Of a DNA stretch of 64,000 nt, positions 4,948 through 27,917 are shown piece after piece (the first letter of the stretch is position 1; the number at the start of each line of letters is the position of its first letter). The stretch is taken from positions 14,270 to 78,269 of the forward strand of contig JABMNY010000003.1 of NCBI GenBank assembly GCA_013204385.1. Reading direction: 5' to 3'. A program made the position numbers and the translations under genes. Below the pieces are notes generated by a model, which saw only the letters and a list, made by a program, of their open reading frames with translations, ran no database searches and was not told the origin of the DNA. This stretch comes from Candidatus Uhrbacteria bacterium (lineage in GTDB: Bacteria > Patescibacteriota > Patescibacteriia > UBA9934 > GWF2-40-263).

Positions 4948-6432
4948 TTACCTCGCCTTTTTTGTTACTTGAAATCCAAGGTATTTTCCAATCATGAGTC
5001 TTGTTTGTGCATCGATTGCTGGGAAGGATCCAAATACGATAAATGTGACGGGAAGCAAAAGCCATTGCAATCCCATTACAAGCCACGTATGTCTGCGCAC
5101 TTGTGAAGGACGTGCTGGAAGCAACGTAAGCGACATCATAGCTGAAACAAAAATTCCAACCATCGCGAACTGCATGAGCTGTTCGAGCGTAAACGGGGCA
5201 GCTTGAATCAAGGCGTTTGTCTCCCCTTTTGCCACCCATAACGGCAACCATCCTAAAACGAACATGATGATGGGCGCGGTCGCCCATGTAAACATTCCTT
5301 CGATGTGATTAAACACATATTGAAACTTCTTTCTTTTTGAAATGAGTGGATCGCGTTTAAATCCATCAATCACATACGGAAGATGCTCCACTCCCCAAGC
5401 CCATCGACGCATTTGAATGTATAGCGCCTTCATCGACTCCCAATACGTCTTCCCTGTTACGGCGTCCATGGAGACAGGCAGGAACATTGGGGTCACACGA
5501 TAATCCCCGTGATAATGAAGGAACGCCTGCATGAATATTCGTGAGTCCTCACTCACGATATCTTTCTGCCAAAACCTGACATCCTTCAACATCTTCCAAG
5601 GCATGGAGTGTGAAGAAAACGTCCAAAGACGTTCAGACCGCGTAAGCTCTCCAAACAACCAAAAGGTTGTTCCAAACGCCCCAATACGGACCGGTGCAGA
5701 AGCAGACCAAATATTGTTTGAGAAAAGCGCGATAGGCTGATAGGAAGAATGTGTAGGGTCCTCCACAGTACAGTAGAGATAAGTGAGATACGAAAAATAC
5801 TGGGGATGTGCAATTGTATCGATATCAAACGCCGACACAACAACATCCTCATCTTGAACCTCAGGAAACTGCGTTGCCAAAATCTTCTCCATGGTATGGC
5901 CCATCCAGCTCAAATTTGATCCCTTCCCAGGAATTTCATCCGGAAGCCCCTTTGGATGCACTGTTGAACCAAAATACTTAAACACCGAACCAAATTCTTG
6001 TTCAGCACGACGAACTATTTTTTGAAAAGCCTCCTGATCCGCTTCTTCTCCCCCTAGCACAACCATCATGCGACTGTTTGAAAATCGATTATCTTTGAGA
6101 GAGCGAAGTGTAGAGCGAATAATCTCATACCCCTCCTTATATGTCGGCAGAAGAATCATGTGCACAATCCGATCAGAACCCTCAATCGATGAAAGTTTTG
6201 ATTGCCAATCTGTTTTATTCGCCTGACGATATCGATTCCACGAGATCACCACAAAAATATTGAAGTACAGCACACGAAACAACCACAACAAATCAAACAC
6301 GATGATAAAAATGATCACCCACAGAGGTTGGAAGAAACTCAGAATAAGCGCAATAGAAAAAGTTCCCCAAACCAAGAGGCCGGGGAACATTTCCCAAAAA
6401 CGCATCGATCCGTAGGTGTAAGGTTCTCGCAT
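4948..6432 (-). CDS. Processive family-2 glycosyltransferase (cellulose/chitin-synthase-like), multi-TM
   Basis: 494 aa; N-terminal TM helices, central GT domain, QxxRW motif (IQMRRWAWG); start ATG overlaps upstream stop by 1 nt (TAATG). Confidence 0.7.
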   Translation of the reverse strand: MREPYTYGSMRFWEMFPGLLVWGTFSIALILSFFQPLWVIIFIIVFDLLWLFRVLYFNIFVVISWNRYRQANKTDWQSKLSSIEGSDRIVHMILLPTYKEGYEIIRSTLRSLKDNRFSNSRMMVVLGGEEADQEAFQKIVRRAEQEFGSVFKYFGSTVHPKGLPDEIPGKGSNLSWMGHTMEKILATQFPEVQDEDVVVSAFDIDTIAHPQYFSYLTYLYCTVEDPTHSSYQPIALFSNNIWSASAPVRIGAFGTTFWLFGELTRSERLWTFSSHSMPWKMLKDVRFWQKDIVSEDSRIFMQAFLHYHGDYRVTPMFLPVSMDAVTGKTYWESMKALYIQMRRWAWGVEHLPYVIDGFKRDPLISKRKKFQYVFNHIEGMFTWATAPIIMFVLGWLPLWVAKGETNALIQAAPFTLEQLMQFAMVGIFVSAMMSLTLLPARPSQVRRHTWLVMGLQWLLLPVTFIVFGSFPAIDAQTRLMIGKYLGFQVTKKAR

Positions 6433-7603: not shown

Positions 7604-8189
7604 TCATCACGACACGTTCTCCGTTCAAAATAGAAGAAAGAAATCGATCTGATACTTGACGGCGATCAAGAAACTCATCCTTTGGCATCAATGTATAGTT
7701 AATCTCGTACGGAATTTCATCTTCAAACTTCCCAATCACCTTTTCTAGATCTTCCTGCTTAATTGAACCAACAATCAATATATCTGTGGCAATATCCGTT
7801 GCGTCCACAAAACGTCCCGTAAAGGCAAAATAGTCTATTTTCCCTTTTTCTTGGATTTCTTGAACAAGATTCTGTTTCAGGAGAATTTGTACTTTTTGAA
7901 ATAATGATCGAAGATCCTCAAACAGGATAAAATCTTTATCCACCCCATAATACTTCTTTCTATCGGACAATCGCTTCGCATCCTTCTTTTCGCCTACTTT
8001 TTCATACAAAAGACCAAGTTCTACAAGGTTTTTTAACTCTCTCCTAACAGAATTCAACTGTGCATCGATTCTTCGAGTGAGCTCGCGAACAAAAAAAGTA
8101 TCGCCAGGTTGTTGCAGAAACAAGGCAATAAGCCTTGCTCTGGTCTTAGAACCAAACATCTGCTCAAGTTTAAAAGGTTTTTTCATCAT
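7584..8189 (-). CDS. Winged-helix (ArsR-like) transcriptional regulator domain protein
   Basis: Start chosen at MMKKPF; N-terminal RARLIALFLQQPGDTFFVRELTRRIDAQLNSVRRELKNLVELGLL wHTH pattern. Confidence 0.5.
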   Translation of the reverse strand: MMKKPFKLEQMFGSKTRARLIALFLQQPGDTFFVRELTRRIDAQLNSVRRELKNLVELGLLYEKVGEKKDAKRLSDRKKYYGVDKDFILFEDLRSLFQKVQILLKQNLVQEIQEKGKIDYFAFTGRFVDATDIATDILIVGSIKQEDLEKVIGKFEDEIPYEINYTLMPKDEFLDRRQVSDRFLSSILNGERVVMIDNIKG

Positions 8190-14316: not shown

Positions 14317-14526
14317 TTATTGTGAAAACTTTTCTTTAATCTCTTCGACTTTGTTCTCAACCTGGGCAAGTTTCTTTTTGAGTTCACTTGCAAGCTCTAA
14401 GCCTCGCTCAAACTTTTTCAAACCCGCATCCAGATCAAGTTGGTCTTCTGAATCAAACCATTTTGTGATCTCTTCGAGTTCTGAAAAGGCTTCTGTAAAA
14501 TTTACCTCTTGTTTTTTTGCGCTCAT
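14317..14526 (-). CDS. xseB: Exodeoxyribonuclease VII small subunit
   Basis: 69 aa coiled-coil MSAKKQEVNFTEAFSELEEITKWFDSEDQLDLDAGLKKFERGLELA. Confidence 0.85.
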   Translation of the reverse strand: MSAKKQEVNFTEAFSELEEITKWFDSEDQLDLDAGLKKFERGLELASELKKKLAQVENKVEEIKEKFSQ

Positions 14527-15731
14527 ACGAGTTTTTGCTGACCTTTATCTTTTAATCGCAGGATTCGTGCCTGAGCTGAACTTGTGGCGAATTGTACCGT
14601 AATCTCCCCTCCTACTTCAAGTTGCCCTGCGTCGCGCACCACAGCCCCTCCTGCCATGACAAGACTGTACCCTCGCGCGAGAATACGTTTTGGGTCTACC
14701 TGACGCAGGAATCGCTCTGATCCAGACAACCGATCACTCAGTCGTGGAAGCCAGGCATTCACACGAGAAAGGATTCCTTCTTGTGCACGTGACAGGCGAT
14801 CTTTCTGTCGCTCTAAAATAAATCCAATCAGATTTGTCACACGCTCAATACTGAATTGTTGATCCTGAATCGTGTCACGCAGGCGCGATTCCATATGTTG
14901 CTCAAGCGTCCCAATCTCATACAACACATCCTGCCTGCTCGGCACAATACGCTCGGCAGCGTTCGAAGGCGTCGACGCACGAATGTCTGCCACAAAATCT
15001 GCCAATGATTCATCTCGCTCATGCCCCACCGCACACACAACGGGAATCTCAGACGCATATACAGCGCGTGCCACAGCTTCGTCGTTAAATGCATGCAAAT
15101 CCTCAAGTCCTCCTCCCCCCCGCGTAAGCACAAGAACCTCTGGACGCTTCTCCGCAGGGAGCGCATTAAAAAACTGGAATGCGCCCACAATATCTCCCAC
15201 CGCTTCTCTTCCTTGTACATGGACATGTGCATGTAACACTTGCACACCTCCCCATCGATTATTTAGAATCCTCAAAAAATCTCCGTATGCAGCCGCGTCC
15301 CTTGAAGTTAAAAGTCCAATGCGTTCAGGAAATCGCGGGAGTTCACGCTTACGCCCCTCTCCAAAAAGTCCTTCATCCTGAAGTTTCTTTTTGAGTAATT
15401 CATACGATCGTCGCAATGCTCCTTCTCCTACAGCGGCAACCTCCGTTACATTCATCTTAAACGTCCCAAAGCGCTCGTAGATTTTTGGTGCGCCCTTGAG
15501 TTGCACCCGCATGCCATCTTCAATCGGAGATTTCAGTTGCCAGGTGGTCATAAAACATTTCAGAACGGCTTGCGCTTCTTCATCTTTCAAATCAAAACTG
15601 ACCCACTTTCCTTGGGCGACACGATAATCAGAAACTTCCCCCTCCACAATAACTTCATGGGAAGGAATACACTGCAATGTTTGATTGACGAGCGTTAAAT
15701 ACTCGCCAACAGAAAGCGCTTTTTCAGGCAT
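14523..15731 (-). CDS. xseA: Exodeoxyribonuclease VII large subunit
   Basis: 402 aa; OB-fold N-terminus and catalytic core LLTSRDAAAYGDFLRIL...LTRGGGGLEDLHAFNDE; 4-nt overlap with xseB. Confidence 0.9.
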   Translation of the reverse strand: MPEKALSVGEYLTLVNQTLQCIPSHEVIVEGEVSDYRVAQGKWVSFDLKDEEAQAVLKCFMTTWQLKSPIEDGMRVQLKGAPKIYERFGTFKMNVTEVAAVGEGALRRSYELLKKKLQDEGLFGEGRKRELPRFPERIGLLTSRDAAAYGDFLRILNNRWGGVQVLHAHVHVQGREAVGDIVGAFQFFNALPAEKRPEVLVLTRGGGGLEDLHAFNDEAVARAVYASEIPVVCAVGHERDESLADFVADIRASTPSNAAERIVPSRQDVLYEIGTLEQHMESRLRDTIQDQQFSIERVTNLIGFILERQKDRLSRAQEGILSRVNAWLPRLSDRLSGSERFLRQVDPKRILARGYSLVMAGGAVVRDAGQLEVGGEITVQFATSSAQARILRLKDKGQQKLV

Positions 15732-15732
15732 G

Positions 15733-16215
15733 TTAAAAGACAGGATTAAAGAAGACTGGCTGAAAATATTGAACCAAAAGCCACAAGCTGATTCCGAGAA
15801 TCAAATGGGAAACAATGGTCTCCATCCAGACATGACGCCCTTCTTTGAGACCAAATACCCCGAACCCAAGAAGTGGGTAGACCAGCAAACCTACTATGAC
15901 CCAACTCAGAATTGCATAAACGAGAAGTGAAATGAAGGAATAGGGCTCATGCAATCCCATCAACCACTCTAATTGAACCAACGCAACATAACAGAACCCA
16001 AACAAAAACCCCATCACCACATGAATCAGAAGTCCGATAAAAAAAACTTCATGTTTATGACGAATCTTCAGACCAAAAATGGTTTTGACATCAATAAGAA
16101 GCGGAACTTCCTTCACACGACCCTTCTCTGTAATTTCAAGCAAAATTGCTGGGAGCGCAAAGACAAATGCAACTAACCCCCCAAGTGATCCGCCTAATAA
16201 ATAATCGATCGACAT
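15733..16215 (-). CDS. Hypothetical multi-TM membrane protein
   Basis: 160 aa, 4-5 hydrophobic helices. Confidence 0.45.
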   Translation of the reverse strand: MSIDYLLGGSLGGLVAFVFALPAILLEITEKGRVKEVPLLIDVKTIFGLKIRHKHEVFFIGLLIHVVMGFLFGFCYVALVQLEWLMGLHEPYSFISLLVYAILSWVIVGLLVYPLLGFGVFGLKEGRHVWMETIVSHLILGISLWLLVQYFQPVFFNPVF

Positions 16216-16218
16216 ATA

Positions 16219-17148
16219 TTATGGATAGAGAACAAGAACAACTTTTCTTCCCTGGGTAATTTCCCCCCCATCATTCCAGTCGTGCATTGCGTACAAAACA
16301 GTCTCTGCGTCATAGACGAATGCTTCCCCGCGCGAAGTTCCTGGATCATTCACAATAAACTGGCCATCCGTTGTATATCCACGAATCACAAGCATATGGT
16401 ACAGCGGACCTGGAGCGGTAAAATAGGGGTTTCCCAACAATCGTCCAGCCGCTGGAAGAAGGACGGGGTGCCCTGCAGCAAGTTCTGTTTGAATGTCTTC
16501 AATCGTTGGATTCTCGATAAGTTTATAGGTATGTCCAAACTTGAGTTCTGCTAAGACGCCTGTTTTTTCTGCGGTTGTGTCTTCATAATAGCCAAACGTC
16601 TCTTTTTCAAATGCAACAATATTCAACAGATCAAGATCGGCTGTATCTGGAGGAATAGGTCCTGCAGACACCCCTTCATAGTAAGAATGGACCATATACA
16701 CGCTCGCCTCCTCACAAGACTCTTGATAGGGCTCATCCCAATTCCCATGTGGGGCTTGAGACGTAAATGGAACCGCAAGATTCACAGACTCAGGAAGTGT
16801 TTCTACCACTTCTTCAGGCAATTCTTGTTCAACGGGAACTTCTGGATCATTCACTTCAGCTTCGACAACAACTTCTAAATCTGGTTCTGTTGAATCCTGA
16901 GGAACCTCGGAGTCTATGACTGCCTCCTCTTCTACCTCCGCTTCTGTCACATCTTCACCCGTTGTCGACTTCACTTCCTGTTGTTCTGTCATTTCTTCAT
17001 ATCCGATCGCGTCCGGAAGAACAGGTGCCCCCATCTTGAGATACCACTCCATGACCTCCACACGTTGAGAATAGACTCCTGCAGAAAAAGCAATGAGGAG
17101 AATGAACAATGTGAAAATTCTTTTTATGTGCCTTGCTCTCATAAACAA
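16219..17148 (-). CDS. Secreted papain-like (C39-like) peptidase domain protein with acidic Glu/Val-rich linker
   Basis: 309 aa; N-terminal signal/TM; putative catalytic Q/C (SQAPHGNWDEPYQESCEEASVYMV) and H (YHMLVIRGY) arrangement. Confidence 0.5.
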   Translation of the reverse strand: MFMRARHIKRIFTLFILLIAFSAGVYSQRVEVMEWYLKMGAPVLPDAIGYEEMTEQQEVKSTTGEDVTEAEVEEEAVIDSEVPQDSTEPDLEVVVEAEVNDPEVPVEQELPEEVVETLPESVNLAVPFTSQAPHGNWDEPYQESCEEASVYMVHSYYEGVSAGPIPPDTADLDLLNIVAFEKETFGYYEDTTAEKTGVLAELKFGHTYKLIENPTIEDIQTELAAGHPVLLPAAGRLLGNPYFTAPGPLYHMLVIRGYTTDGQFIVNDPGTSRGEAFVYDAETVLYAMHDWNDGGEITQGRKVVLVLYP

Positions 17149-17468
17149 ATTCCCTTACCTTCGACAAATTCTCCGCAAGTAAATCCTGTTGGGCACTGGG
17201 CGTCACTCTCACACTCACAGTATTCGAAGCACAGATCAATACAAACCTCTCCAGGATTCAGTCGACACGCAGATCCGCACGCGTTCCATGTCCCTCCCGA
17301 ACTCGCACAACTTGTCTGATTCAATACACTCTCCTCAGATAGTTCTTCTTGTGCCTGCTCTGTACTGGTTGGAACTTCTTGCATTTCACGCTCTCCCCTT
17401 GGCATAAGCCAATACAACGCAATCAAGAGGGCTCCAAAGAACAGTATGGTGAATATCCCTTTTTTCAT
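17139..17468 (-). CDS. Small secreted cysteine-rich protein (12 Cys in C-terminal 55 aa)
   Basis: Start at MKKGIFTILFFGALLIAL (3 nt after upstream stop); CASSGGTWNACGSACRLNPGEVCIDLCFEYCECESDAQCPTGFTCGEFVEGKGICL. Confidence 0.5.
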   Translation of the reverse strand: MKKGIFTILFFGALLIALYWLMPRGEREMQEVPTSTEQAQEELSEESVLNQTSCASSGGTWNACGSACRLNPGEVCIDLCFEYCECESDAQCPTGFTCGEFVEGKGICL

Positions 17469-18865
17469 AAAATGGCATTTTCTCGCACCCAACGCTGAAG
17501 GACATATGTTGCACGTACATCATCCTCATTATATTCCAAAATTTTCTGCAACACTTTAGGTTTCTTTTTTTGTAGCCATTCTTCAAACCAAAGGACAGAA
17601 TTGGCTCCGCCTGCATCCTCTGCCCGCCAAGAAAAACCGATATAGGCAGCAATATCTTTTAACGAATAGGACGAGAGAGGGAAAATAACGGTTGGACGGA
17701 TAATGGAAAGCAAATCAATCATATTCGTCTCAAGTGCCTCACGCGCAATCTCTCCAATTCCATATTTCGCCCCAAAGCGACGGACGACCTCTTCTTCAAA
17801 CCATCCGTAATGATAGATTGGGGAATCAATATGACGTTCAATAAAATGGACAAACTCTGCCCACATCTCCCCTTCTTTTTCTGGAGACTCTGCAAAAAAT
17901 GAATGATAAACCTCCTCTTTCTCACTTACCTCCAACACCCCAAACAAGTAATCAAAATCCCGAAGCGGATCACTTTCAATATCAAAATAAAGTTCCGTTC
18001 CGGCTTCTGGTAAATGCGCAGTTCCTCGAATGATGTGGCGACGCTCTGTAAGTGCAATGGCTTGATCACGCATCATTTCAAGTCGCGATGAACTAACGTC
18101 TGGAGCAAGCGATTCTAGCTGCGTCACAGACATCAACGAGAGCTTGGCGATAGTGGTCACCCCCGCTTCTGCAAGCCGATGAACTTCCTCTCGCCAGACA
18201 CGATTCAGCAACGATAAATCATCACAACTCTCTGATTCATTTTTACATTCCTTCTGCCAAGGAGATTGCTTACACCCACTTGTCATAAAATGAGCTGGAC
18301 GCGCCCCAGAAATGATCTTCTCAATCTCTGTAAGCGTGAGCTCATACTCTGCCTCAAACTCTTCAATGAGATACGGAAATGTTTCGTTGTCCGGGGAGAC
18401 CACATACCCTTGAACAGGTCTCACTCCCTGAAGAGACTCGAGAAGCTCCGCATAAAAACAACCTTGAAACTTAAACTCATCTCGCAGAAAGCGCGAGCGC
18501 TTCATGTCTGCAGCCACGTAGTAAAAATTTCCAAGTCGTGAACGACCTTCAACTTTCTCAAGCACGTCCGGATGCCCTACCCAATGCTTATCAATCAGCA
18601 CACCATGATAAATGGTTTGACGCCCCTCTCGCATAAATGCGAGCGTTTGTTTGAAAGCTTCCTCTGGATCCTCTGCCGTTACTTCTACGAGATCTTGTTT
18701 ATCTGAAAGTAAATCACGCTCCTTTTCCTCAATAAGGCCATCGTCTTGAAGTTTTGCCATCAGCACCTCATGCGGTCTTGGCTCTCCAGAATGTGTATCA
18801 AAATACACCCAATTTGGACATTTGAGATATTGATAAAACGTCTTTTCCGTAATTGATCCATGCAT
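17465..18865 (-). CDS. TM0106-family RecB-like nuclease with C-terminal RNase-H-like exonuclease domain
   Basis: Start chosen at MHGSITEKTFYQYLKCPNWVYF (alternative 18916); YHGVLID..HPDVL..YYVAADMK nuclease core; C-terminal LYFDIESDP exonuclease-like motif. Confidence 0.65.
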   Translation of the reverse strand: MHGSITEKTFYQYLKCPNWVYFDTHSGEPRPHEVLMAKLQDDGLIEEKERDLLSDKQDLVEVTAEDPEEAFKQTLAFMREGRQTIYHGVLIDKHWVGHPDVLEKVEGRSRLGNFYYVAADMKRSRFLRDEFKFQGCFYAELLESLQGVRPVQGYVVSPDNETFPYLIEEFEAEYELTLTEIEKIISGARPAHFMTSGCKQSPWQKECKNESESCDDLSLLNRVWREEVHRLAEAGVTTIAKLSLMSVTQLESLAPDVSSSRLEMMRDQAIALTERRHIIRGTAHLPEAGTELYFDIESDPLRDFDYLFGVLEVSEKEEVYHSFFAESPEKEGEMWAEFVHFIERHIDSPIYHYGWFEEEVVRRFGAKYGIGEIAREALETNMIDLLSIIRPTVIFPLSSYSLKDIAAYIGFSWRAEDAGGANSVLWFEEWLQKKKPKVLQKILEYNEDDVRATYVLQRWVRENAIL

Positions 18866-18909
18866 ACACGCATTATAGCAGAGTCTTCTAAAATTTGGAG
18901 CATGTTGAG

Positions 18910-18939
18910 TTGACAATTTTGGCTATTTTCCCTAGATTA
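18910..18939 (+). promoter_or_regulatory. Near-consensus sigma70 promoter TTGACA-N17/18-TAGATT driving the E2/E1/Ubl operon
   Basis: ttgacaattttggctattttccctagatt; GGAG RBS ~6 nt before ATG at ~18985. Confidence 0.5.
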
Positions 18940-18984
18940 TGGAGTCCGAGTGAAATCGGAACGTTCTTTTACAACGGAGAACCC

Positions 18985-20406
18985 ATGCCCCAAAATACCG
19001 AGATCGATCAATTTCTCACGAGACCGCTTCACAAAGCGTTTCTTGTTCCAGAAGTCTATGGACTTGAACAAAGAGAAGCTCTCATCACAGCTGGATTCAA
19101 AACCAGCTTGAAGACTGCGCGCAGTGGTCACTTCGCTTTTCGTGCACTGTGCATTTACATCGGTCGTCGAGGAAACGCACGACTGCAACGATTGCAATCA
19201 GCCATCAAGATCATATTCGACTCGACCGATAAGCTCGCAAGCTTTGAAGGACGCATCGTTGATCAGATTCTGCCCATCATCGCTCCGAGCGATGTTACGG
19301 TCCATATTGATCAGACACAACGAAATGATTCGACTGGAAACGATCCGACGGAAAAAGCGCTAAACGCTTATCTTCCGATCCTGACACGATTGGCTCAGAT
19401 TTCCGGGCTCAGTGTGGAATTCCATGTTCCACAAAAAGAACGGCTTCACTCACCCCATGCATCCGACGGTGTGATCCATATCTACGCCAACGCCTGCCCA
19501 CCTGGAGAATATCAATCTTGGTATGTCGATACGGCATTTGGACTCACGATTGCTCCTGCATCAAAAGACCGGCCTGTCGGCTATGGCCCAACACAAGGAA
19601 GAGGAATTGTTCTGAAGGATGCAGATGAAAAAAATCTTGTTCAAATTCTCGAAGACACTTGGTACCTTCTCATTCCAACGCTTGGAATCTTCAATCCTTT
19701 GACGAGTGTCCAGATCTTCGAGCAATTGCTCGCGCTCGGTTGGGATGCGAAGCGCACGGGAAAGCCTACTGCCCAAAAACCTCTTCCGTGCACGAAATTT
19801 CTCCGAAAAGCTCGTACATGGATCGAACCGTTTGCGGATGGCGCTACGGAAAATGCACGCAACTGCGAAGAAGAGATCAAGCGATTGCATGCAAGGCTCG
19901 CAGAGAAAACGCGCGAACTCGTTCTCTGGAGAGGTATGGAAGAAGCTCTGAAAAAGACATCGTATTCTCGCGCAACCAAAAAACGGCTTCCAAAGGATCT
20001 TCAGATCATTCTCAATCTTCCGGATGTTGATCGCCTGGAACTCTTCGAGGATGCCATGCATGTGTGGACACGTCCTCTTGTCATCATTCATGAACTCGAG
20101 GCGTATCTCGCAGGAACTTTTGTTATTCGTCTCAACAAGGAAGGTGGTGTAACCGTGTGGAGTGAAGACTCCACCCATCCAGACGGGGTTCCTCATCCGC
20201 ATATCGCCAAGCATGGCGGTCCTTGCTTTGGAAACGCTGGAACAGCCATAGCTAAAGCTGGAGGAGAGGCGCGTTACGCAGATGCTGTAAAGCATGTCCT
20301 CACCTGGCTGATACTTGGTTACACACCAAATCTGGCAACAGTGAAAATTGAAGCATGGCCGAAAGTCCCAAGCATGGAGAACTCCGATGCAACCTCCCCC
20401 TCCTGA
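18985..20406 (+). CDS. 473-aa protein: uncharacterised N-terminal ~380 aa fused to C-terminal UBC/E2-like domain (HPH-x4-G-x-C)
   Basis: Start at MPQNTEIDQF (ORF track start 18895 is upstream alternative); C-terminal HPHIAKHGGPCFGNAG...LTWLILGYTPN resembles E2 catalytic core; GC above flanks. Confidence 0.6.
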   Translation: MPQNTEIDQFLTRPLHKAFLVPEVYGLEQREALITAGFKTSLKTARSGHFAFRALCIYIGRRGNARLQRLQSAIKIIFDSTDKLASFEGRIVDQILPIIAPSDVTVHIDQTQRNDSTGNDPTEKALNAYLPILTRLAQISGLSVEFHVPQKERLHSPHASDGVIHIYANACPPGEYQSWYVDTAFGLTIAPASKDRPVGYGPTQGRGIVLKDADEKNLVQILEDTWYLLIPTLGIFNPLTSVQIFEQLLALGWDAKRTGKPTAQKPLPCTKFLRKARTWIEPFADGATENARNCEEEIKRLHARLAEKTRELVLWRGMEEALKKTSYSRATKKRLPKDLQIILNLPDVDRLELFEDAMHVWTRPLVIIHELEAYLAGTFVIRLNKEGGVTVWSEDSTHPDGVPHPHIAKHGGPCFGNAGTAIAKAGGEARYADAVKHVLTWLILGYTPNLATVKIEAWPKVPSMENSDATSPS

Positions 20407-21052
20407 CCGTTCCATGAACTTTGATCAACAAGATGAGCTCTTTGATCCCGCACTTGCACGACCTGTTACCGTCATTGGTGCAGGGTCTGTTGGTGGTGAA
20501 GTGGTGGTCAAACTCTCTCAAATCGGAGCAGTGAATATCCAAGTTTGGGACAATGATGATGTAGCTTCACACAATATTCCTATGAGCGTCTATCGGATCA
20601 AGGACCTCGGTCGTTATAAAGTCGATGCTCTCAAGGAGATTGTAAGAGAAAAAAGTGGAATAGAGATCAGAACTCACCTGAAAAATTGGACGAGACAGCC
20701 CCTCAGGGATTCCGTCATTTGTTGTGTTGATTCCATGGATGTTCGTTGCGATGTCTGGGGGATCGTACGAGACAATCCACTCATCGATGTCTTCATTGAC
20801 ACACGGATCGCAAAAGAATTCGTCGTGGTCTATGCCATCAACCCCACAGACCCAGTACAGATCGCGTTTTACGAATCGCGATTGTACTCCTCAAGCGAAG
20901 CGGTAACGCCAACATGTGGAGACCATGGCATAACCTATGTCAGTAGTATCGCCGCCAGTGCAGCTATTGCACGATTGACGAATTCGTGGAAAGGCGGTAC
21001 AAATTCCCCACTATTTGAGATGTTGGTGGGTAACCTCCTTCAAATCACCTAG
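20387..21052 (+). CDS. ThiF/MoeB-type E1-like adenylyltransferase (short, no rhodanese domain)
   Basis: VTVIGAGSVGGEVVVKL (GxGxxG), VWDNDDVASHNIPMSVY, D..ICCVDS ThiF pattern; ATG at ~20387 has GGAG RBS and overlaps upstream gene by ~20 nt. Confidence 0.75.
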   Translation: MQPPPPDRSMNFDQQDELFDPALARPVTVIGAGSVGGEVVVKLSQIGAVNIQVWDNDDVASHNIPMSVYRIKDLGRYKVDALKEIVREKSGIEIRTHLKNWTRQPLRDSVICCVDSMDVRCDVWGIVRDNPLIDVFIDTRIAKEFVVVYAINPTDPVQIAFYESRLYSSSEAVTPTCGDHGITYVSSIAASAAIARLTNSWKGGTNSPLFEMLVGNLLQIT

Positions 21053-21090
21053 TTCATCATGAATCGATCAAAAAGTTGCAAGGAGCCCTA

Positions 21091-21339
21091 ATGTCAGCCA
21101 CAGTCACCGTACGAGTGGTTCCGCTAAGCGGAACCCCGACCGAAGTCACCGTACCATTCAAGAAGGGAATGACCGTCAATTCGGCGCTCACCGCCGCGGG
21201 GGTCTCGAGCGACAAGCGCGACCTCTCTGTCGAAGCGGCTCCGGGCCAGACCCTCAAGTCGGGTCAGACCGTCGTCGTCACGGATAAGGTCAAGGCCGGC
21301 GGGCAGGTCACTGTCCGCGAACGTCCACAGGGGTCCTGA
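21091..21339 (+). CDS. Small beta-grasp-sized protein (candidate ubiquitin-like/ThiS-like carrier) with internal GG followed by 11-aa C-terminal tail
   Basis: MSATVTVRVVPLSGTPTEVTVPFKKGMTVNSALTAAGV...TVVVTDKVKAGG|QVTVRERPQGS; AAGGAG RBS 5 nt upstream; ~60% GC. Confidence 0.5.
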   Translation: MSATVTVRVVPLSGTPTEVTVPFKKGMTVNSALTAAGVSSDKRDLSVEAAPGQTLKSGQTVVVTDKVKAGGQVTVRERPQGS

Positions 21340-21450
21340 CCCTACAACAACAAGAGTGCCGTCTCCGACACTCCGCTACGCCCCGACCCCTCATTGAGCG
21401 GTCGGTTTTATTTTTCCTTATTTGTCGGCGGCTCAGCCCCCGACCTGGTT
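21340..21450 (+). terminator. Intrinsic terminator (ccgacc-N11-ggtcgg + TTTTATTTTT) followed by conserved 34-nt module TTATTTGTCGGCGGCTCAGCCCCCGACCTGGTTG
   Basis: Module recurs as reverse complement at 35405-35452 downstream of the other high-GC orphan gene. Confidence 0.55.
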
Positions 21451-21464
21451 GGCTAAAACGTGTG

Positions 21465-22610
21465 TCATGGAAGATAGTTTGCGGGCTCGTACACATTTCG
21501 GGCATTCCACAGAATCCACCCACTTGCCCCGGCGTCACGTGCCGCTTGGATCTGTGCCTCGATCAATGTACTTGTGTACACTGCGCCAATGTCAAAATCT
21601 TGAAGCCATGGTCGCCAATGCGATCGCAGCTCCTCTTCGGTTCCCGAATACATTCCAAGCATCAAGTGTGTTCCTGAATCCAATGCCATTTTCACGATCT
21701 CATACGGATACAAAGCTGGATTTCCAAGTCCTTTAAATCCGTCTGGATAATGCGAGGGATACACCATGGGTGAAACCCAATCAGCAAAGGGAAAGACATC
21801 CGCTAAACGCTGACCGATATTATAATCATGATGGGACTCAAACGTCATGCCAAACACATCAAACGAAACAGGAATCCCTTCATCATGCATCGTCCCTCCC
21901 ACGGTTTGAAAAAATCTCTGCATCACTTCCACTTTTGTCTCGCGGTGATCATACACAGGATAGACAGTCGCGTTCACGGCGCCATCTGAAGCAAATCGCA
22001 CATAGTCATACTGAATCTCATCGAATCCCGCTTCGTAAAATCGTCGACCAAGTTCGATAGCGTAGTCTGAGACTTCTTGTGCGGAAGGATCCACCCAAAC
22101 CGATCCGATCGAATCAGTCCAATACCCTCCTCCTAACGAGCGCAGTGCCACACTTGGATGATCCCAAGCAAATGCTCCATCACGCATCACCGCGATGCGT
22201 GCGATCCGATAGATTCCTGCGTCCGCAAGACGCACCAATACTTCCCTAAAATCCTCGACCTCAAGCAGTTGTCCATTATCCATCTTCACATCAATCACTA
22301 CCGCGTTCAGCCCCGTCTCCAACATGTACTCAATCAATTGATCTGCACGTGCATTCGTTGCTGTCACAGCGGTCCAATAGATTCCACGCACTTCTTCTGG
22401 AAGAAGTACGTGCGAAGTAACTTCAACAGGGAATTCTTCTTCTACTCCCTCTTTTTCCTCAACCAGCAGTTCTTCAGGCTCTGTTTGTATCACGAGCTCA
22501 ACTTCTTTCTTTTGTTCCTGATGCATCAACATCCCGATACCCAACACAATCAAAAGCGCAGAAAACAAAAACACAGGGACGAGAAACTCGACCCTGTGTT
22601 TGGTATCCAT
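21465..22610 (-). CDS. Membrane-anchored TIM-barrel glycoside-hydrolase-like (GHL10/DUF4015-like) protein
   Basis: 381 aa; N-terminal TM; weak family recollection only. Confidence 0.45.
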   Translation of the reverse strand: MDTKHRVEFLVPVFLFSALLIVLGIGMLMHQEQKKEVELVIQTEPEELLVEEKEGVEEEFPVEVTSHVLLPEEVRGIYWTAVTATNARADQLIEYMLETGLNAVVIDVKMDNGQLLEVEDFREVLVRLADAGIYRIARIAVMRDGAFAWDHPSVALRSLGGGYWTDSIGSVWVDPSAQEVSDYAIELGRRFYEAGFDEIQYDYVRFASDGAVNATVYPVYDHRETKVEVMQRFFQTVGGTMHDEGIPVSFDVFGMTFESHHDYNIGQRLADVFPFADWVSPMVYPSHYPDGFKGLGNPALYPYEIVKMALDSGTHLMLGMYSGTEEELRSHWRPWLQDFDIGAVYTSTLIEAQIQAARDAGASGWILWNARNVYEPANYLP

Positions 22611-22611
22611 A

Positions 22612-23238
22612 TTATTGTGCGCGCTCTTCGACCGTAACGGTTGTCATGACATCTCCGACCATAATGGCATCCACGACATCCATTCCTTCAAGTACACGTC
22701 CAAAAATGGAGTAAGACTTTGGAAGTGGCACATCTCCTAACATGACAAAAAATTGCGAGCCATTTGTACTGGGTCCACGGTTTGCCATGGCGACAATTCC
22801 GCGCTCATACGTGTAATCATCTGTAAGCTCATCAGAGAATTCATAGCCTGGACCACCCGTCCCATTTCCAGCAGGATCTCCTCCTTGAATCACAAACCCC
22901 TCTTCACGTCGATGAAATTTCAGTCCAGTGTAGTATCCTCCTTCCGTTAAATATACAAAGTTAGAAACGGTCATTGGAGCCGTATCTGCAAAGAGTTCAA
23001 AAACGATATCTCCCTTTTCTGTTGAGATACGAATCTGTTTATTGGCAATCTGTTCTTCTGGAAGGGTTCCAGGAAAACTCCACGTTTGAGTTGATGTTTC
23101 GTCTTGCACAGAGTCTGGATAGCTAAAGGTGAGTGAAGATTCTTCTTGGGCAACTGGGGCACACCCAGCCCCCATTAACACGAGCGCGCTCAGAGAAATG
23201 AGTCCTAGATATTTCATAGAGTATATCCGCTGATCCAA
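22612..23238 (-). CDS. ppiB: Peptidyl-prolyl cis-trans isomerase, cyclophilin type, with signal/lipobox-like N-terminus
   Basis: FHRREEGFVIQGGDP...GIVAMANRGPSTNGSQFFVML cyclophilin signature. Confidence 0.9.
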   Translation of the reverse strand: MDQRIYSMKYLGLISLSALVLMGAGCAPVAQEESSLTFSYPDSVQDETSTQTWSFPGTLPEEQIANKQIRISTEKGDIVFELFADTAPMTVSNFVYLTEGGYYTGLKFHRREEGFVIQGGDPAGNGTGGPGYEFSDELTDDYTYERGIVAMANRGPSTNGSQFFVMLGDVPLPKSYSIFGRVLEGMDVVDAIMVGDVMTTVTVEERAQ

Positions 23239-23693
23239 TCTGTAAAACCACTCACAGAAAGAGATGGCATTTCGAAATTTCCGGGGAGTGCTGTTGAGAG
23301 CAAGAGACCAGAGAGAATCGCGATAGAGATAGAGAGGACTCCGATCAACTTATTTACCCCCATTGGCATGTGATCACAATTGCGACACGTTCCAAGAAAA
23401 ACGATTTTATGATGCACTTCTAATTTTGAACGAGATCCTGGTGCAGATTTTTCTATGATAGTCACTACAGGAACGGTCTCTTCTTCCACTTGAAATACCA
23501 GTTCAGGAGTTTTAGCTACGGGAGTTTTTTTTGCAACAGACTTTTTTGCAACAGGTTTCTTTTTTGCTCCTGCTTTTTTTGTTGTTGTTTTCTTGACGGC
23601 TGTTTTCTTTGAAACCGTTTTCTTTTTTGCAACAGGTTTCTTTACCTCCTTTGTGTTTGAAGCAGAGGAGGATGTTTTTGTTTTTGTTGGCAT
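23214..23693 (-). CDS. Lys/Ala/Pro-rich histone-H1-like N-terminal repeats fused to C-terminal TM helix
   Basis: KKPVAKKKTVSKKTAVKKTTTKKAGAKKKPVAKKSVAKK repeats; C-terminal LIGVLSISIAILSGLLL. Confidence 0.45.
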   Translation of the reverse strand: MPTKTKTSSSASNTKEVKKPVAKKKTVSKKTAVKKTTTKKAGAKKKPVAKKSVAKKTPVAKTPELVFQVEEETVPVVTIIEKSAPGSRSKLEVHHKIVFLGTCRNCDHMPMGVNKLIGVLSISIAILSGLLLSTALPGNFEMPSLSVSGFTDWISGYTL

Positions 23694-23788
23694 AGACTTC
23701 TCTCCTCACCGCTTGCACGGGAAGAATAAAGAACGTTAAGAAATTTTATTACTCACAGTATAACACACGTAAATACAGGATACCAAAC

Positions 23789-24268
23789 TTACTCAACAAG
23801 AACCCGTTCTCCCAATCCCACAAGAAGATTTCCCGCAAAACTTACCGGAGCAAAAAGTGTTTGTGTCTCAAGTACAAAAGATGTTGGGAGTGCCTCCCAA
23901 GAAAGTGTAGAACGATCAAATTGATAGACCACGACATCTTGAATCATGAGTCCTTCTTCTGTGAATTGATCGAATTCAAATGTGAGCTCCCCCTCCTGAA
24001 GGATCCCTCTCTGTGTAAACGCAAGTTCATACACGGGACTCACTGCGTGTTCAATATCTGTTGTCACTCCATCAAGACGTTCGATCACAATCACTCCTGA
24101 TTCACTTGTGACTCCTTCAAGTGAGACGATCCCGTCTTCTGAGCGTGCCTTTACTTCTTCAGGAGCAGGTCGTAGAAAAAGAAATGTACTTGCAATTAAA
24201 ACAATCGCGACCACCATCGCGACTGAAAAATTTGATTCTTTTTTTGAATTCTTACTTCCCATACCCAT
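23789..24268 (-). CDS. Hypothetical N-terminally anchored protein
   Basis: 159 aa; single TM near N-terminus. Confidence 0.4.
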   Translation of the reverse strand: MGMGSKNSKKESNFSVAMVVAIVLIASTFLFLRPAPEEVKARSEDGIVSLEGVTSESGVIVIERLDGVTTDIEHAVSPVYELAFTQRGILQEGELTFEFDQFTEEGLMIQDVVVYQFDRSTLSWEALPTSFVLETQTLFAPVSFAGNLLVGLGERVLVE

Positions 24269-24271
24269 TTA

Positions 24272-25327
24272 CTATATCACAAACGTTTCCTCCCACGGGA
24301 ACCCTTCTCGTCCAAAATGTCCGTAGGCAGCGGTTGCTCGATATACAGGCTGAAACAGATTTAACCGCTCTGTAATGGCTTCTGGTCGAAAATCAAATGT
24401 CTGCAAGAGTAGGTTTGTCAGATCTGTCTTGCTTCCTCGAGACTTCACTCCCATCCCAACTGCCTGAACATGCACAGGCTCTGCCCGACCCATCGAATAC
24501 ACAAGTGTAACCATCGCAGAGGCTACCAACCCCTGCTCCACCAAATAACGCGCCGCGTAGCGCGCCATGTACGCACCTGCACGGTCCACCTTACTTGGAT
24601 CCTTTCCAGAAAGAGATCTGTCTCCTTGTGGAATGAGCCCCCCATAGGTATCAACGGTAAGTTTGCGTCCAGACGCTCCTGAATCTGCACGGAATCCTGC
24701 ATCAATAAAAGATCCAATCGGATTGATAAAAATTTGCACGCCATCTTCTCCTACAATCGGAATCAAGAGACGCTCGAGCAACGCAGTCTTTACCTCTTTT
24801 TCTTCTATGCTCACTTGATGCGACGCAAGAACCGTCACAGAACTCACCTGTGCCCCATCCATGGTCAACTGAATTTTTCCGTCTGGTTTGAGCCAAGAAA
24901 ACATCGGATCACTTTTGCGTAGATCGTCCAGTCGTCTGGCAAGATTCTGTGCGTATACGACAGCGCGTGGCATGAGCTCGCGTGTTTCATTTGTGGCATA
25001 CCCGTTTACAACCATGTTGTCCGTCACGCCATTTGAGACGCGCTTCATTTCATCAGATTGCGTTTCGATATTCACGAACACTTCAATATCATCCTTATAC
25101 CCAATCTCTGCGTACACCTGGCGAGCAAGTGCTCCGATATCAAAGTCAGCCGTACTCGTCACCTCTCCACCAACCATCACCATCCCATGACTTCCTAATA
25201 CATTTACGTCCACGCGTGCCTGCGCGTCACGACGTAAATATTCATCCACAATGGCGTCTGCGATTTGATCACAGACTTTATCAGGCTGACCTTGAGTGAC
25301 AGATTCGACCGTTTTTTTCATACGCAA
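24272..25327 (-). CDS. metK: S-adenosylmethionine synthetase
   Basis: GQPDKVCDQIADAIVDEYL, GGGAFSGKD-like and C-terminal GHFGR motifs. Confidence 0.95.
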   Translation of the reverse strand: MRMKKTVESVTQGQPDKVCDQIADAIVDEYLRRDAQARVDVNVLGSHGMVMVGGEVTSTADFDIGALARQVYAEIGYKDDIEVFVNIETQSDEMKRVSNGVTDNMVVNGYATNETRELMPRAVVYAQNLARRLDDLRKSDPMFSWLKPDGKIQLTMDGAQVSSVTVLASHQVSIEEKEVKTALLERLLIPIVGEDGVQIFINPIGSFIDAGFRADSGASGRKLTVDTYGGLIPQGDRSLSGKDPSKVDRAGAYMARYAARYLVEQGLVASAMVTLVYSMGRAEPVHVQAVGMGVKSRGSKTDLTNLLLQTFDFRPEAITERLNLFQPVYRATAAYGHFGREGFPWEETFVI

Positions 25328-25459
25328 TGTTGCCTCAGGTTAACAAAATTTTGACCGCTTGTCATCGCATAGAGTGGGGATGAGTTCGGGATAATTGCCT
25401 GAACCCTTGATCTTTTTGTATTTCTAAGCTATGTTCTAGCGTTCTTTGGAGGATGGAAC

Positions 25460-26008
25460 ATGTTAGACACAGGAACTCTGCGACTTAAATTCATCGCTCT
25501 CATCAACCGAGGGTCTGATGGACTCGACTTGGGTGCAGGTGATGGCCGTTGGGCATTCGTCGCCTCAAGTAAACAAGCTCGTGTCACAGCCATTGACCGC
25601 CAACCATCACCAGATTCGCTTCCAATCGGAATGCGATGGATTCAAGCAGATGTGTGTAATGGTCTCTCAAGCTTCTTGGAATCAAACCATTCAGGTTTTG
25701 ACTTCATGATGTGCTGGAACCTCATTCAGTTCCTTCCCCACGACTACGTGACAGACAATCTGCTTCCAAGCCTCGCTCAGTACGCACGACCCAACTGTGT
25801 GCTGGGTCTACGGACATTCTGGCGCAACCCAATTCCCGGTTTTGCAAATCCTGTCCCCTCACTCTATAGAACCAATGAACTTGTCAGGAGTCTGAAGGGT
25901 TGGGACATCATTCACAAGGAAGAAATCGAAGGTGATGGCCCAAGTCTCGATGGGACAACCATGCGTCACTGGTATTTCACCGACATCATCGCTCGCTTCC
26001 CCTCATAG
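25460..26008 (+). CDS. Class I SAM-dependent methyltransferase
   Basis: motif I LDLGAGDGRWAFV; 182 aa; slightly elevated GC. Confidence 0.6.
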   Translation: MLDTGTLRLKFIALINRGSDGLDLGAGDGRWAFVASSKQARVTAIDRQPSPDSLPIGMRWIQADVCNGLSSFLESNHSGFDFMMCWNLIQFLPHDYVTDNLLPSLAQYARPNCVLGLRTFWRNPIPGFANPVPSLYRTNELVRSLKGWDIIHKEEIEGDGPSLDGTTMRHWYFTDIIARFPS

Positions 26009-26118
26009 AGATACTCTCCTCTCACACCTACCACTTGGTAGGTTTTTATATTGACAATCTCCTTCAAAATGTGTACCGTCAGCCTCCACTCCCTCCCCCA
26101 TCCTTATGGAGTTGAAAC

Positions 26119-26943
26119 ATGTTTGCTCTTCTCACACTTGCTTCACGAGCTGCTCAGATGGGTGGAAGATCTCTTGTAGACTTCCGTACGCGTGGTCTCT
26201 CCCTAGAGACCACGAAAAAGCCTGATGGCACGCTCGTCACAGAGGCAGACGCTCGAGCGTCTCGAATCATTCAACGGGTCTTGAAGGCTGGCGATCCTTA
26301 TGCATTCATCCTTGATGAGGAGGCTGTAAACACACATGACCTCGAGCGCCCTAAGTACTTCTGGATCGTGGATCCACTCGATGGAACAAGTGCGTTTATC
26401 GAAGGAGCCGACACCTTCTGTACAATGATCGCACGCATGCAAGGGAATATCCCTGTATTGGGAGTGATCTACTTCCCTGTGAGCAACACGCTCTTCTGGG
26501 GTGGGTACCGACAAGGTGCGTGGATGAAAGTCGGTGATCAACCAGCGAGAGAACTTTCTGGTCGACGCATCCAGCTCATGGAGCAGGTGCGTATGACCAC
26601 CCCCACAAAAGTTGTGACGCGCGCCCTTTTCATGCGCATCGCTCAATCGCTCAATGTTCAAGCGGTTGAGATCGACCAACCGTCTGGTGGTCTCTATACC
26701 GGCATACTCAACAATGGACATGACCTTGTTATCACTCGACCTGGTAGACCAGCCGTCTGGGATACCGCTGCAGGCCACGCCATCCTCCTTGCTGCTGGCG
26801 GGAAGATCGTCGATTTGCATGGCGACCCACTCAACTACCAAGAAGGCACTCACTTGAAATACGGATCCGTCGCCGTGATCGATCCGAGTCTTCTTCCTGT
26901 GATCCTGCACCAACTTCCTCCTCGCAACGAACTCATCCCTTGA
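26119..26943 (+). CDS. Inositol monophosphatase / CysQ-family 3'(2'),5'-bisphosphate nucleotidase
   Basis: WIVDPLDGTSAF, DEEAV.. metal-binding motifs. Confidence 0.8.
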   Translation: MFALLTLASRAAQMGGRSLVDFRTRGLSLETTKKPDGTLVTEADARASRIIQRVLKAGDPYAFILDEEAVNTHDLERPKYFWIVDPLDGTSAFIEGADTFCTMIARMQGNIPVLGVIYFPVSNTLFWGGYRQGAWMKVGDQPARELSGRRIQLMEQVRMTTPTKVVTRALFMRIAQSLNVQAVEIDQPSGGLYTGILNNGHDLVITRPGRPAVWDTAAGHAILLAAGGKIVDLHGDPLNYQEGTHLKYGSVAVIDPSLLPVILHQLPPRNELIP

Positions 26944-26947
26944 TGAA

Positions 26948-26985
26948 ACGCTCGCTCAGCCCACTTGGACTGAGCGTTTTTTATT
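26948..26985 (+). terminator. Intrinsic terminator after IMPase-family gene
   Basis: cgctcagcccacttggactgagcg + TTTTTTATT. Confidence 0.7.
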
Positions 26986-27042
26986 ATCCATCTTTGTCTC
27001 CCAACAACGATACAAAACGTGTGTGTGAAATTTTGGAGAAAT

Positions 27043-27224
27043 GGTGGTGGTCAAGGTATTGCAAGACTTGGCCTGGCTCCACCATTCGTCAGTAAATTCT
27101 CTCTCTTCTAGCAACACTCAACAGGGTGGAAATAAATTTAGGTGTGCCGGTGGTAGTCAAGATATTGTAAGACTTGGCCCGGTTCCGCCGAAGCACCTCA
27201 ATTTATTTCCACCCTGTTGAGTTA
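27043..27224. repeat. Two related ~41-nt hairpins (conserved loops TATTGYAAGA) with the second embedded in a 22-bp long-range inverted repeat
   Basis: ggtggtggtcaaggtattgcaagacttggcctggctccacc vs ggtggtagtcaagatattgtaagacttggcccggttccgcc; actcaacagggtggaaataaatt / aatttatttccaccctgttgagt. Confidence 0.5.
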
Positions 27225-27244
27225 TCCCCACCCCACCCCTTGCG

Positions 27245-27288
27245 TTCGGTTTTTGTTCGGTTCATAATACGAACATAAAGCGAACACC
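27245..27288. promoter_or_regulatory. 44-nt imperfect dyad (GTTCGG-N5-GTTCGG...CGAACA-N5-CGAACA) 15-55 nt upstream of lexA: candidate LexA autoregulatory operator(s)
   Basis: gttcggtttttgttcggttcataatacgaacataaagcgaaca; inner GTTC-N7-GAAC. Confidence 0.4.
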
Positions 27289-27302
27289 TAACGAGATACT
27301 GT

Positions 27303-27917
27303 ATGCCACAACTCACAAAAAAACAGTCAGCTGTGCTCGCGTTCATTCGCACACACATTGAAGAGAACGGGTATGCCCCCTCCTACAGAGAAATCGCTGA
27401 CGCATTCGGACTCTCTTCCCCCGCAACCATTCATGGCCATGTCCAGTCTCTCGTTGAAAAAGGACTTATCGTAAATGGAGATGATGGTGAAGCACGTTCA
27501 ATTGAACTCGTTCAAGAAGCCGCATCAGGATCCTCTATCCTTCTCCCCTTCATCGGACTCATTACCGCAGGAGAACCAATAGAAGCTGTCCAAGATAATG
27601 AAACGATGGCTGTCCCTGTAGACTTTGTTCTCGATGGTGCCAACTCATTTGTCTTACGTGTAAAAGGACGCTCCATGATTGAAGACGGAATTCTTGATGG
27701 AGACTATGTTGTCATCGAACGTAATCCTTCCCCACGTAACGGAGAGGTTGTCGTCGCACTTCTGGACAATGCCTTTGCAACGCTCAAGCGTTTTTACCGA
27801 GAGACAAATCGTATTCGTCTTCAACCAGCCAACAGCTCAATGGATCCAATCTACGTCCAAGACTGCATTATCCAAGGGGTGGTCCGAGCCGTCATCAGAA
27901 AGTTCCAACCCATCTAA
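27303..27917 (+). CDS. lexA: LexA repressor
   Basis: N-terminal wHTH; C-terminal S24 peptidase with Ala-Gly cleavage site region and Ser...Lys dyad (VKGRSM...ATLKR). Confidence 0.9.
   Translation: MPQLTKKQSAVLAFIRTHIEENGYAPSYREIADAFGLSSPATIHGHVQSLVEKGLIVNGDDGEARSIELVQEAASGSSILLPFIGLITAGEPIEAVQDNETMAVPVDFVLDGANSFVLRVKGRSMIEDGILDGDYVVIERNPSPRNGEVVVALLDNAFATLKRFYRETNRIRLQPANSSMDPIYVQDCIIQGVVRAVIRKFQPI

Follow-up and report, generated by a model that had tools for sequence, protein, structure and literature searches.

An 82-residue protein encoded on a contig of an Uhrbacteria bacterium resembles ubiquitin-like modifiers (Ubls) and holds a Gly-Gly dipeptide well ahead of its end: residues 69–71 are A-G-G, and 11 further residues (QVTVRERPQGS) follow. 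The open reading frame was present as described in the original prediction, which had been made from the sequence alone, and it raised the question which C-terminus such a protein would use. It had been proposed that the dipeptide is exposed by processing of a precursor with an 11-residue extension, with the fallback that the dipeptide is incidental. We analysed the gene, its operon, the surrounding 64-kb stretch of DNA (the window) and the homologs found in other genomes.

The three-gene operon and its products

The Ubl gene was the last of three co-directional genes, after those for a 473-aa E2-like protein and a ThiF-type E1; both neighbours had been predicted and both were recovered. The features of the operon are listed by position in the window:

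18985–20406 (+): gene 1, a 473-aa E2-like fusion protein; start ATG at 18985 with GGAG at 18976–18979, in agreement with the NCBI call and all homologs
20194–20226 (+): putative E2 active-site stretch H404-P405-H406-I-A-K-H-G-G-P-C414, with HPH at 20194–20202 and Cys414 at 20224–20226
20414–21052 (+): gene 2, a minimal ThiF-type E1-like adenylating enzyme of about 212 aa; start ATG at 20414, Pfam ThiF match at 1.8e-12
20915–20917 (+): invariant Cys of the E1 in the motif C-G-x-H-G, a candidate crossover-loop catalytic cysteine by conservation and spacing
21080–21085 (+): Shine-Dalgarno sequence AAGGAG of the Ubl gene, five bases 5' of the ATG, read from the sequence
21091–21339 (+): gene 3, an 82-aa beta-grasp ubiquitin-like protein; start ATG at 21091, stop TGA at 21337–21339
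21298–21303 (+): Gly70-Gly71 dipeptide in the turn ahead of the last beta-strand, placed with the homolog and SAMP2 alignments and the AF2 model
21319–21336 (+): C-terminal signature E77-R78-P79-Q80-G81-S82, directly followed by the stop codon (21337–21339)
21383–21415 (+): hairpin (21383–21405) followed by UUUUAUUUUU, a likely intrinsic terminator closing the three-gene operon, from RNA folding

The mechanically derived open reading frames of genes 1 and 2 started at the TTG codons 18895 and 20348, respectively. For the Ubl gene, the ATG at 21091 was favoured over a TTG further 5' (21076) because of the AAGGAG at 21080–21085. Its 82-aa product reads MSATVTVRVVPLSGTPTEVTVPFKKGMTVNSALTAAGVSSDKRDLSVEAAPGQTLKSGQTVVVTDKVKAGGQVTVRERPQGS. 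The segment 21340–21425 folded with −20.3 kcal/mol (z = −3.35); the terminator at 21383–21415 was missed by a consensus scan. A divergent gene for a RecB-like nuclease was located 5' of the operon and a convergent DUF4015 gene beyond the terminator. Since it is bounded by a divergent gene upstream and by a hairpin with a U-run and then the convergent DUF4015 gene downstream, the operon consists of exactly three genes and is free of a peptidase gene.

The convergent genes for the Ubl and DUF4015 are 125 bp apart, and the gap contained back-to-back hairpins (21353–21374 on the minus strand, 21383–21415 on the plus strand), with a T-run 3' of one hairpin on each strand, and looks like a bidirectional terminator region. 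The nuclease upstream (17465–18916, minus strand) was a TM0106-family RecB-like protein with Cas4-like and RNase_H_2 domains (NCBIfam 2.2e-99). Its gene also adjoined the cassette in loci L001 and L013, which looks like synteny within Uhrbacteria rather than a component of the cassette. The base composition of the Ubl gene was distinct (GC 0.63, GC3 0.73), as the neighbours in 14523–27917, its own E1 and E2 genes included, had a GC3 of 0.37–0.47. The Ubl gene also had the highest GC3 of the cassette in seven related loci (L001, L002, L008, L010, L013, L017, L019). Recent horizontal transfer and synonymous-site conservation were ruled out as causes. Four-fold sites were saturated between lineages, indicating a persistent codon or compositional preference.

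The product of gene 1 was composed of an N-terminal alpha/beta region (residues 1 to ~260), a long helical hairpin (~269–343) and a C-terminal UBC-like domain (~345–460) with a UBC/RWD fold. In 14 proteins, down to 23% identity, H404, P405, H406, C414, G416 and N417 were invariant. The spacing of 8 residues from HPH to Cys equalled that from HPN to Cys85/86 of UBE2D2 and UBE2L3 in the alignments. The elements RRL-x-K-[DE]-L, Y-x-x-G-x-F and H-P-H-I-x(5)-P-C were in register with UBE2L3 and UBE2D2, including the catalytic Cys, so that an HPN-type motif and its Cys could be placed, although the HMM and hhalign comparisons with the two proteins were individually weak (E about 1; probability 33%). 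Few E2-like proteins of bacteria have such eukaryote-style HPN-type geometry (Iyer et al. 2006, PMC1779556).

The N-terminal region of gene 1 had been suggested as a possible site of the processing activity. Its only invariant residues were Gly, Gln220 and Tyr227, with Pro and Arg206 nearly so. No conserved set of Cys, Ser, His, Asp or Glu residues for a peptidase active site was found in the 14 proteins, and a fold search of the region gave no significant match, peptidase folds included. From these comparisons we see no basis for a peptidase in this region, which is presumably a built-in adaptor or target-binding part.

By fold and ATP-binding motif, gene 2 belonged to the E1/ThiF/MoeB superfamily (Pfam match above the cut-off). 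The E1 family profile matched ThiF (2.4e-8) and, over the nucleotide-binding half, also TcdA, UBA5, MccB, PaaA, Cap2, UBA3 and BubCD. GxGxxG, DxD, SHN, K and R were invariant, and the Asp of a CVD stretch was nearly so. The Arg-Gln of the ThiF 'NLQRQ' was missing and replaced by SHNIPMS, so the chemistry of this E1 may differ from that of ThiF. All 12 E1 sequences compared had the Cys of C-G-x-H-G, as did two that were more distant, and it was located 62 residues after the Mg-binding Asp. This is close to the Asp-to-Cys spacing of ThiF (Cys184) and MoeB (Cys187), roughly 57 residues; by its spacing, the C-G-x-H-G Cys would be the crossover-loop catalytic cysteine.

Searches against Pfam, PADLOC and NCBIfam returned nothing for the window Ubl or the 473-aa protein themselves. 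A match of the Ubl to DUF7601 (E = 0.007) was below the cut-off and was dropped, as other members of the family matched beta-grasp families. Among 42 members, these Pfam matches were to Ub-Mut7C (18/42), ThiS, SAMP2, DUF348, RnfH, lambda tail protein I and TGS. The family profile matched SAMP2 of P. furiosus (PF1061), for which a structure has been solved, with E = 4e-5. The structure prediction that had been called for (AF2, 4 sequences) gave the order b-b-a-b-b and placed the last strand (residues 72–77) after the Gly-Gly, but at low confidence (pLDDT 59). The top Foldseek matches of this model were all of ubiquitin or SUMO type and not significant (E ≥ 0.04). Judged by the Pfam and profile matches, the small gene encodes a ubiquitin-like beta-grasp protein of the ThiS/MoaD/ubiquitin type, as anticipated.

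Most members outside the Uhrbacteria clade carried an N-terminal extension rich in Lys, Arg, Gly and Ser (MARKKSGSGKKKSGSKN...) before the beta-grasp domain. Examples were encoded in L008 (8256–8522), L010 (8358–8621), L012 (3924–4187), L014 (Ubl end at 5258) and most of the sequences numbered P00xx. The window Ubl was without this extension, which might serve as the acceptor site when chains are formed, or else contact nucleic acid or the ribosome.

The internal Gly-Gly and the C-terminal tail

The window Ubl contains 8 Gly in 82 residues, and a Gly-Gly dipeptide was present in 53% of composition-preserving shuffles. At the position of AGG, the three closest homologs (63–75% identity) had AGT, AGS and AGS, and their last 11 residues read QVTV[R/T]ERPQGS. 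More distant homologs had GD, GQ, GE or GS. Gly70 was thus nearly invariant, Gly71 was exchanged for D, S, T, Q or E, and none of the other family members examined had Gly-Gly there. The original prediction had asked for an alignment of homologs in which the dipeptide is invariant and the tails are variable. The reverse was seen, with a variable dipeptide and a near-invariant tail of fixed length. The proposed exposure of the dipeptide by removal of an extension failed on this lack of conservation, and the fallback was borne out by the homologs and the shuffles: the internal Gly-Gly is, on the evidence of these comparisons, an accident of the lineage of the window protein and not a processing site.

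The alignment with SAMP2 accounts for the position of the dipeptide. The family form '...l-k-a-G-d-t-v-t-v' paired with 'VKDGDFVEV' of SAMP2, and this stretch reads V-K-A-G-G-Q-V-T-V in the window protein. In the ThiS/MoaD/SAMP motif L-x-x-G-D-x-V-x-V, Gly-Gly falls on the 'GD' turn, which precedes the last beta-strand; given this register, the second Gly occupies the place of the Asp in SAMP2 and in other members. Read by this alignment, the 11 residues taken for an extension comprise the last strand (QVTVRE) and a tail of normal length.

The E-R-P-x-G-S end was invariant in the set of 42 sequences, which had been obtained from syntenic loci and a profile search and extended down to 34% identity. 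With a cut-off of E ≤ 1e-3, an exhaustive profile search of 1.84 billion cluster representatives gave 300 proteins, of which the top 150 were pooled with the earlier members; the pool contained 148 non-redundant single-domain proteins with the terminal motif. Their tails had the following composition, counted from the C-terminus (n = 148):

Position −6: E 145
Position −5: R 136, K 9
Position −4: P 119
Position −2: G 140, S 5, A 2, N 1
Position −1: S 145, A 2, G 1

Residues beyond the motif were present in 0/148 members. The terminal Ser (145/148) was at least as conserved as the Gly before it (140/148), and variants ending in SS or NS retained it; one of the SS variants belonged to a complete cassette (L032). 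Where the last residue was not Ser, it was Ala or Gly, both small. Gly was the last encoded residue in 1/148 members, in contrast to the Gly-Ser end of 140/148. In the divergent cassette L018 the Ubl ended in ...VQVRQRPQGG and was of equal length, with Gly replacing Ser. In the window Ubl, 7 residues followed the 'GDxVxV' block, as in SAMP2, and Ser82 aligned with the final Gly of SAMP2. By alignment and conservation, the protein as encoded in the genome already ends in its functional C-terminus, ...E-R-P-Q-G-S; this tail has the canonical length, with Ser where other Ubls end in Gly.

The nearest relatives outside the family with the Gly-Ser end (GS family) consisted of 2–9 tandem beta-grasp repeats (P0062, P0084, P0088, P0090, P0113 and others). 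They ended in [KR]-G-[N/G/A] and 0–9 variable residues, the pattern that is expected for Ubls needing C-terminal processing. The conserved Gly of this outgroup aligned with Gly81, not with Ser82.

Distribution of the cassette and relation to known systems

The set of loci comprised 34, with many duplicates and incomplete contigs, and about 16 distinct cassettes spanned all three genes. The Ubl was the last of the three genes (E2-like/E1/Ubl) in every locus covering the region. The neighbours changed wholly among the about 16 distinct cassettes and only the three genes persisted: a nuclease and DUF4015 were adjacent in the window, Exo_endo_phos and AAA_28 in one clade, and MFS transporters, a DEAD helicase or an AAA+ ATPase elsewhere. 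Neither JAB, nor another peptidase, nor any conserved fourth gene was found across these cassettes. Homologs of gene 1 were found only in metagenome-assembled genomes, each followed by an E1 and a Ubl ending in GS. Their source labels were mostly Uhrbacteria, Parcubacteria and Patescibacteria, with a few automated labels of Binatia, Eisenbacteria and Gammaproteobacteria. Going by these labels, the cassette is widespread in bacteria of the Patescibacteria/CPR type with tiny genomes.

Two members were located on contigs of about 1 Mb. No mobile-element genes were seen at the cassette loci, and PADLOC matched no complete defence-system model. A scan of viral contigs with the Ubl profile gave no relative, leaving a phage origin unsupported. 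By appearance, the cassette is a stable module of the chromosome and not a defence island.

The claim that no peptidase is encoded nearby held for the operon, which had no JAB/DUB gene, and a regular expression for the JAMM motif matched no open reading frame of ≥90 aa in the 64-kb window. For the wider surroundings it needs a qualification: the 309-aa product of a gene at 16219–17148 (minus strand) has an N-terminus that resembles a signal peptide, and it carries a linker that is acidic and of low complexity as well as a Peptidase_C39_2 domain (E = 1.1e-10). Peptidases of the C39 type cleave after Gly-Gly leaders. This C39-like peptidase, 4 kb upstream, was rejected as the processing enzyme. 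It has the signal-peptide-like N-terminus, is encoded on the opposite strand and is not co-conserved, being found with the cassette in L001, the closest relative, and in no other locus; a conserved Gly-Gly site at which it could cut is also missing. It is probably unrelated to the cassette.

The divergent cassette L018 (2831–10048; Ubl at 7721–8005, ending in RQRPQGG) had a gene for an 877-aa AAA+ ATPase upstream. Downstream, on the same strand, proteins of 522 aa and 142 aa were encoded that had no Pfam match and may be extra cassette components in this lineage.

Among known systems, the best profile match of the Ubl family was SAMP2 (PF1061, PDB 1RWS/5LDA). With SAMP2 and ThiS/MoaD it shared the beta-grasp fold, the L-x-x-G-D-x-V-x-V motif, the 7-residue tail and a ThiF-type E1. 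However, SAMP2 and ThiS/MoaD end in Gly-Gly and work without an E2, whereas the GS family ends in Gly-Ser and was always encoded with a UBC-like protein. The UFM1 precursor ends in ...VG-SC and is trimmed by UfSP cysteine proteases, and its E1, UBA5, is minimal and homodimeric. The single Gly followed by Ser at the C-terminus is common to UFM1 and the GS family, and UBA5 was among the matches of the cassette E1. In contrast to UFM1, the extension of which is removed by dedicated cysteine proteases, the GS family had no such linked gene and only a single, near-invariant residue. MccB/MccA and PaaA, among the top structural-database relatives of the cassette E1, act on non-Gly C-termini, but their substrates are short peptides and not a folded beta-grasp protein, and they have no E2. 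The similarity to eukaryotic and Caldiarchaeum-type UBC E2s was not significant alone at the E-value and hhalign probability given above. The cassette E2 differs from these in having HPH instead of HPN and in being fused behind an N-terminal region of roughly 340 residues.

The bacterial conjugation systems were similar in part. In Bil (BilABCD, Aravind '6d'), too, Ubl, E1 and E2 are encoded separately and an E3 gene is absent, the relay runs from Cys to Cys as proposed for the cassette, and some Bil Ubls have a single residue past the conserved Gly (PMC10557695). Bil always includes a JAB DUB, a large E1 (inactive and active adenylation domains and a CYS domain) and variable post-Gly tails, whereas the cassette had no DUB, a single-domain E1 of about 212 aa and a fixed tail. 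Bub (6E/DUF6527) is also a diverged bacterial E1/E2/Ubl set, in which JAB is often missing (10.1101/2024.11.21.623953). It uses Ser and Tyr oxyester intermediates, always includes the serine protease DUF6527 (BubE) and has a Ubl ending in Gly; the cassette, in contrast, had an invariant Cys in both E1 and E2 and no DUF6527 match. Type II CBASS (Cap2/Cap3) combines an E2-E1 fusion with a CD-NTase and JAB, whereas the E1 and E2 of the cassette were separate and CD-NTase and JAB were absent. The cassette proteins matched no PADLOC model except for generic E1-domain matches to the CBASS 'E1-E2' models. None of the operon types 6a–6e has the composition of the cassette (Iyer et al. 2006, PMC1779556). 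Nothing relevant came from literature searches for Ubl systems of CPR bacteria, Ubls with a C-terminal serine or the motif ERPQGS. The three-gene E2/E1/Ubl set is undescribed, in that neither the Ubl nor the E2-like protein is covered by a model of Pfam, NCBIfam or PADLOC and no paper on the set was found.

Candidate conjugation chemistry

We propose, with about even confidence for and against, that the cassette encodes a ubiquitination-like cascade without a deubiquitinase in which the C-terminal Ser82 is activated directly. The mature Ubl would be the full-length protein, so neither a propeptide nor a peptidase would be needed. The E1 would adenylate the alpha-carboxylate of Ser82, and the Ubl would move onto the invariant Cys of the E1 (C-G-x-H-G), be handed to the invariant Cys414 of the UBC-like domain and end on a target amine, with the target presumably picked by the N-terminal region fused to the E2. 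Direct activation of Ser82 is favoured because the Ser is at least as conserved as Gly81, is kept in the SS and NS variants and is substituted only by Ala or Gly, and because an extension never follows, no peptidase co-occurs and MccB provides a precedent. This E1-like enzyme can O-AMPylate MccA peptides ending in Ser, Ala, Gly or Thr (N7S/A/G/T) (PMC11118369). Against direct activation stand the low-confidence model of the Ubl, the missing ThiF Arg-Gln, the outgroup Gly aligned with Gly81 and the precedent of Gly97-Ala98 in BilA of E. aridi, the one closely comparable case that has been tested, where the single Ala98 after the conserved Gly97 blocks adenylation until a JAB DUB removes it (PMC10557695).

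The same experimental precedent from type II Bil underlies the main alternative, a rather unlikely one, in which Gly81 is the reactive residue and Ser82 a one-residue cap. The cap would be trimmed off ahead of activation, either by a peptidase whose gene lies elsewhere or by one of the cassette proteins through an activity that has escaped recognition. The alignment of the outgroup Gly with Gly81 is consistent with it, as is the general use of a C-terminal Gly by Ubl-directed E1-type enzymes (PMC11118369). However, the post-Gly residues of Bil vary in sequence and in number (0–9), whereas exactly one residue was present here in 148/148 members, Ser in 98%. Gly81 itself was exchanged for S, N or A in 8 members, with the Ser kept in the SS and NS variants; no peptidase co-occurred with the cassette in any locus, and the N-terminal region of gene 1 was without a conserved nucleophile or metal ligands.

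We regard it as improbable that the Ubl, rather than being conjugated to proteins, is a sulfur carrier that receives a thiocarboxylate in the manner of ThiS, MoaD or TtuB and serves the thiolation of a cofactor or of tRNA. The closest sequence relatives were SAMP2, ThiS and Ub-Mut7C, some sources had automatically named members 'ThiS' or 'MoaD', and the E1 is of the minimal ThiF type. Yet the Gly-Gly terminus was missing, no gene for ThiG, MoaE, TtuA, a rhodanese or a cysteine desulfurase was present among the called genes and Pfam matches of the about 16 distinct neighbourhoods, and every cassette encoded the UBC-like domain with its invariant Cys, a feature foreign to sulfur-carrier systems. 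It is more doubtful still that Ser82 serves as a leaving group or reactive handle, for example in an N-to-O acyl shift at Gly81-Ser82, an ester or a transesterification, or through modification of its hydroxyl group. The near-invariance of Ser, as against any small residue, at the last position is all that points to such a role, and the E1 has kept its ATP-binding and adenylation motifs while Ala or Gly was tolerated at that position in 3 members. A mature C-terminus at Gly70-Gly71, after removal of QVTVRERPQGS, is barely credible: LKSGQTVVVTDKVKAGG locally resembles a ThiS/MoaD ending, but the dipeptide occurred at that position in no other member examined and arose in over half of the shuffles, and the 11 residues hold the last beta-strand and the most conserved motif of the family.

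Direct activation of Ser82, the reading we prefer, is also part of a wider and more tentative picture. The cassette might represent a CPR-wide, chromosomal, housekeeping-like Ubl pathway with conjugation through a C-terminal Ser, a minimal Cys E1, an HP[N/H]...Cys E2 and no deubiquitinase; tagging would be irreversible, as no deubiquitinase is encoded.

To our knowledge, every Ubl conjugation system characterised so far (eukaryotic, archaeal SAMP, Bil and Bub) relies on activation of a C-terminal glycine, and most of them need a peptidase to expose the Gly or to reverse the tag. The GS family, with at least 148 clusters at 50% identity, has a fixed Gly-Ser end and is peptidase-free. Either its E1/E2 chemistry runs on a serine carboxylate, or there is a trimming step that is not yet known. 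If the former were true, the conjugates would also be resistant to Gly-specific isopeptidases. The HPN-type active-site geometry of the cassette E2 is relevant to the question of how the ubiquitin system descended. The internal Gly-Gly is less interesting than the large undescribed family of Gly-Ser Ubls in a DUB-free three-gene module. The host genomes measure about 1 Mb, and a tagging module of three genes that is conserved in genomes of this size probably has an important part in the biology of the host.
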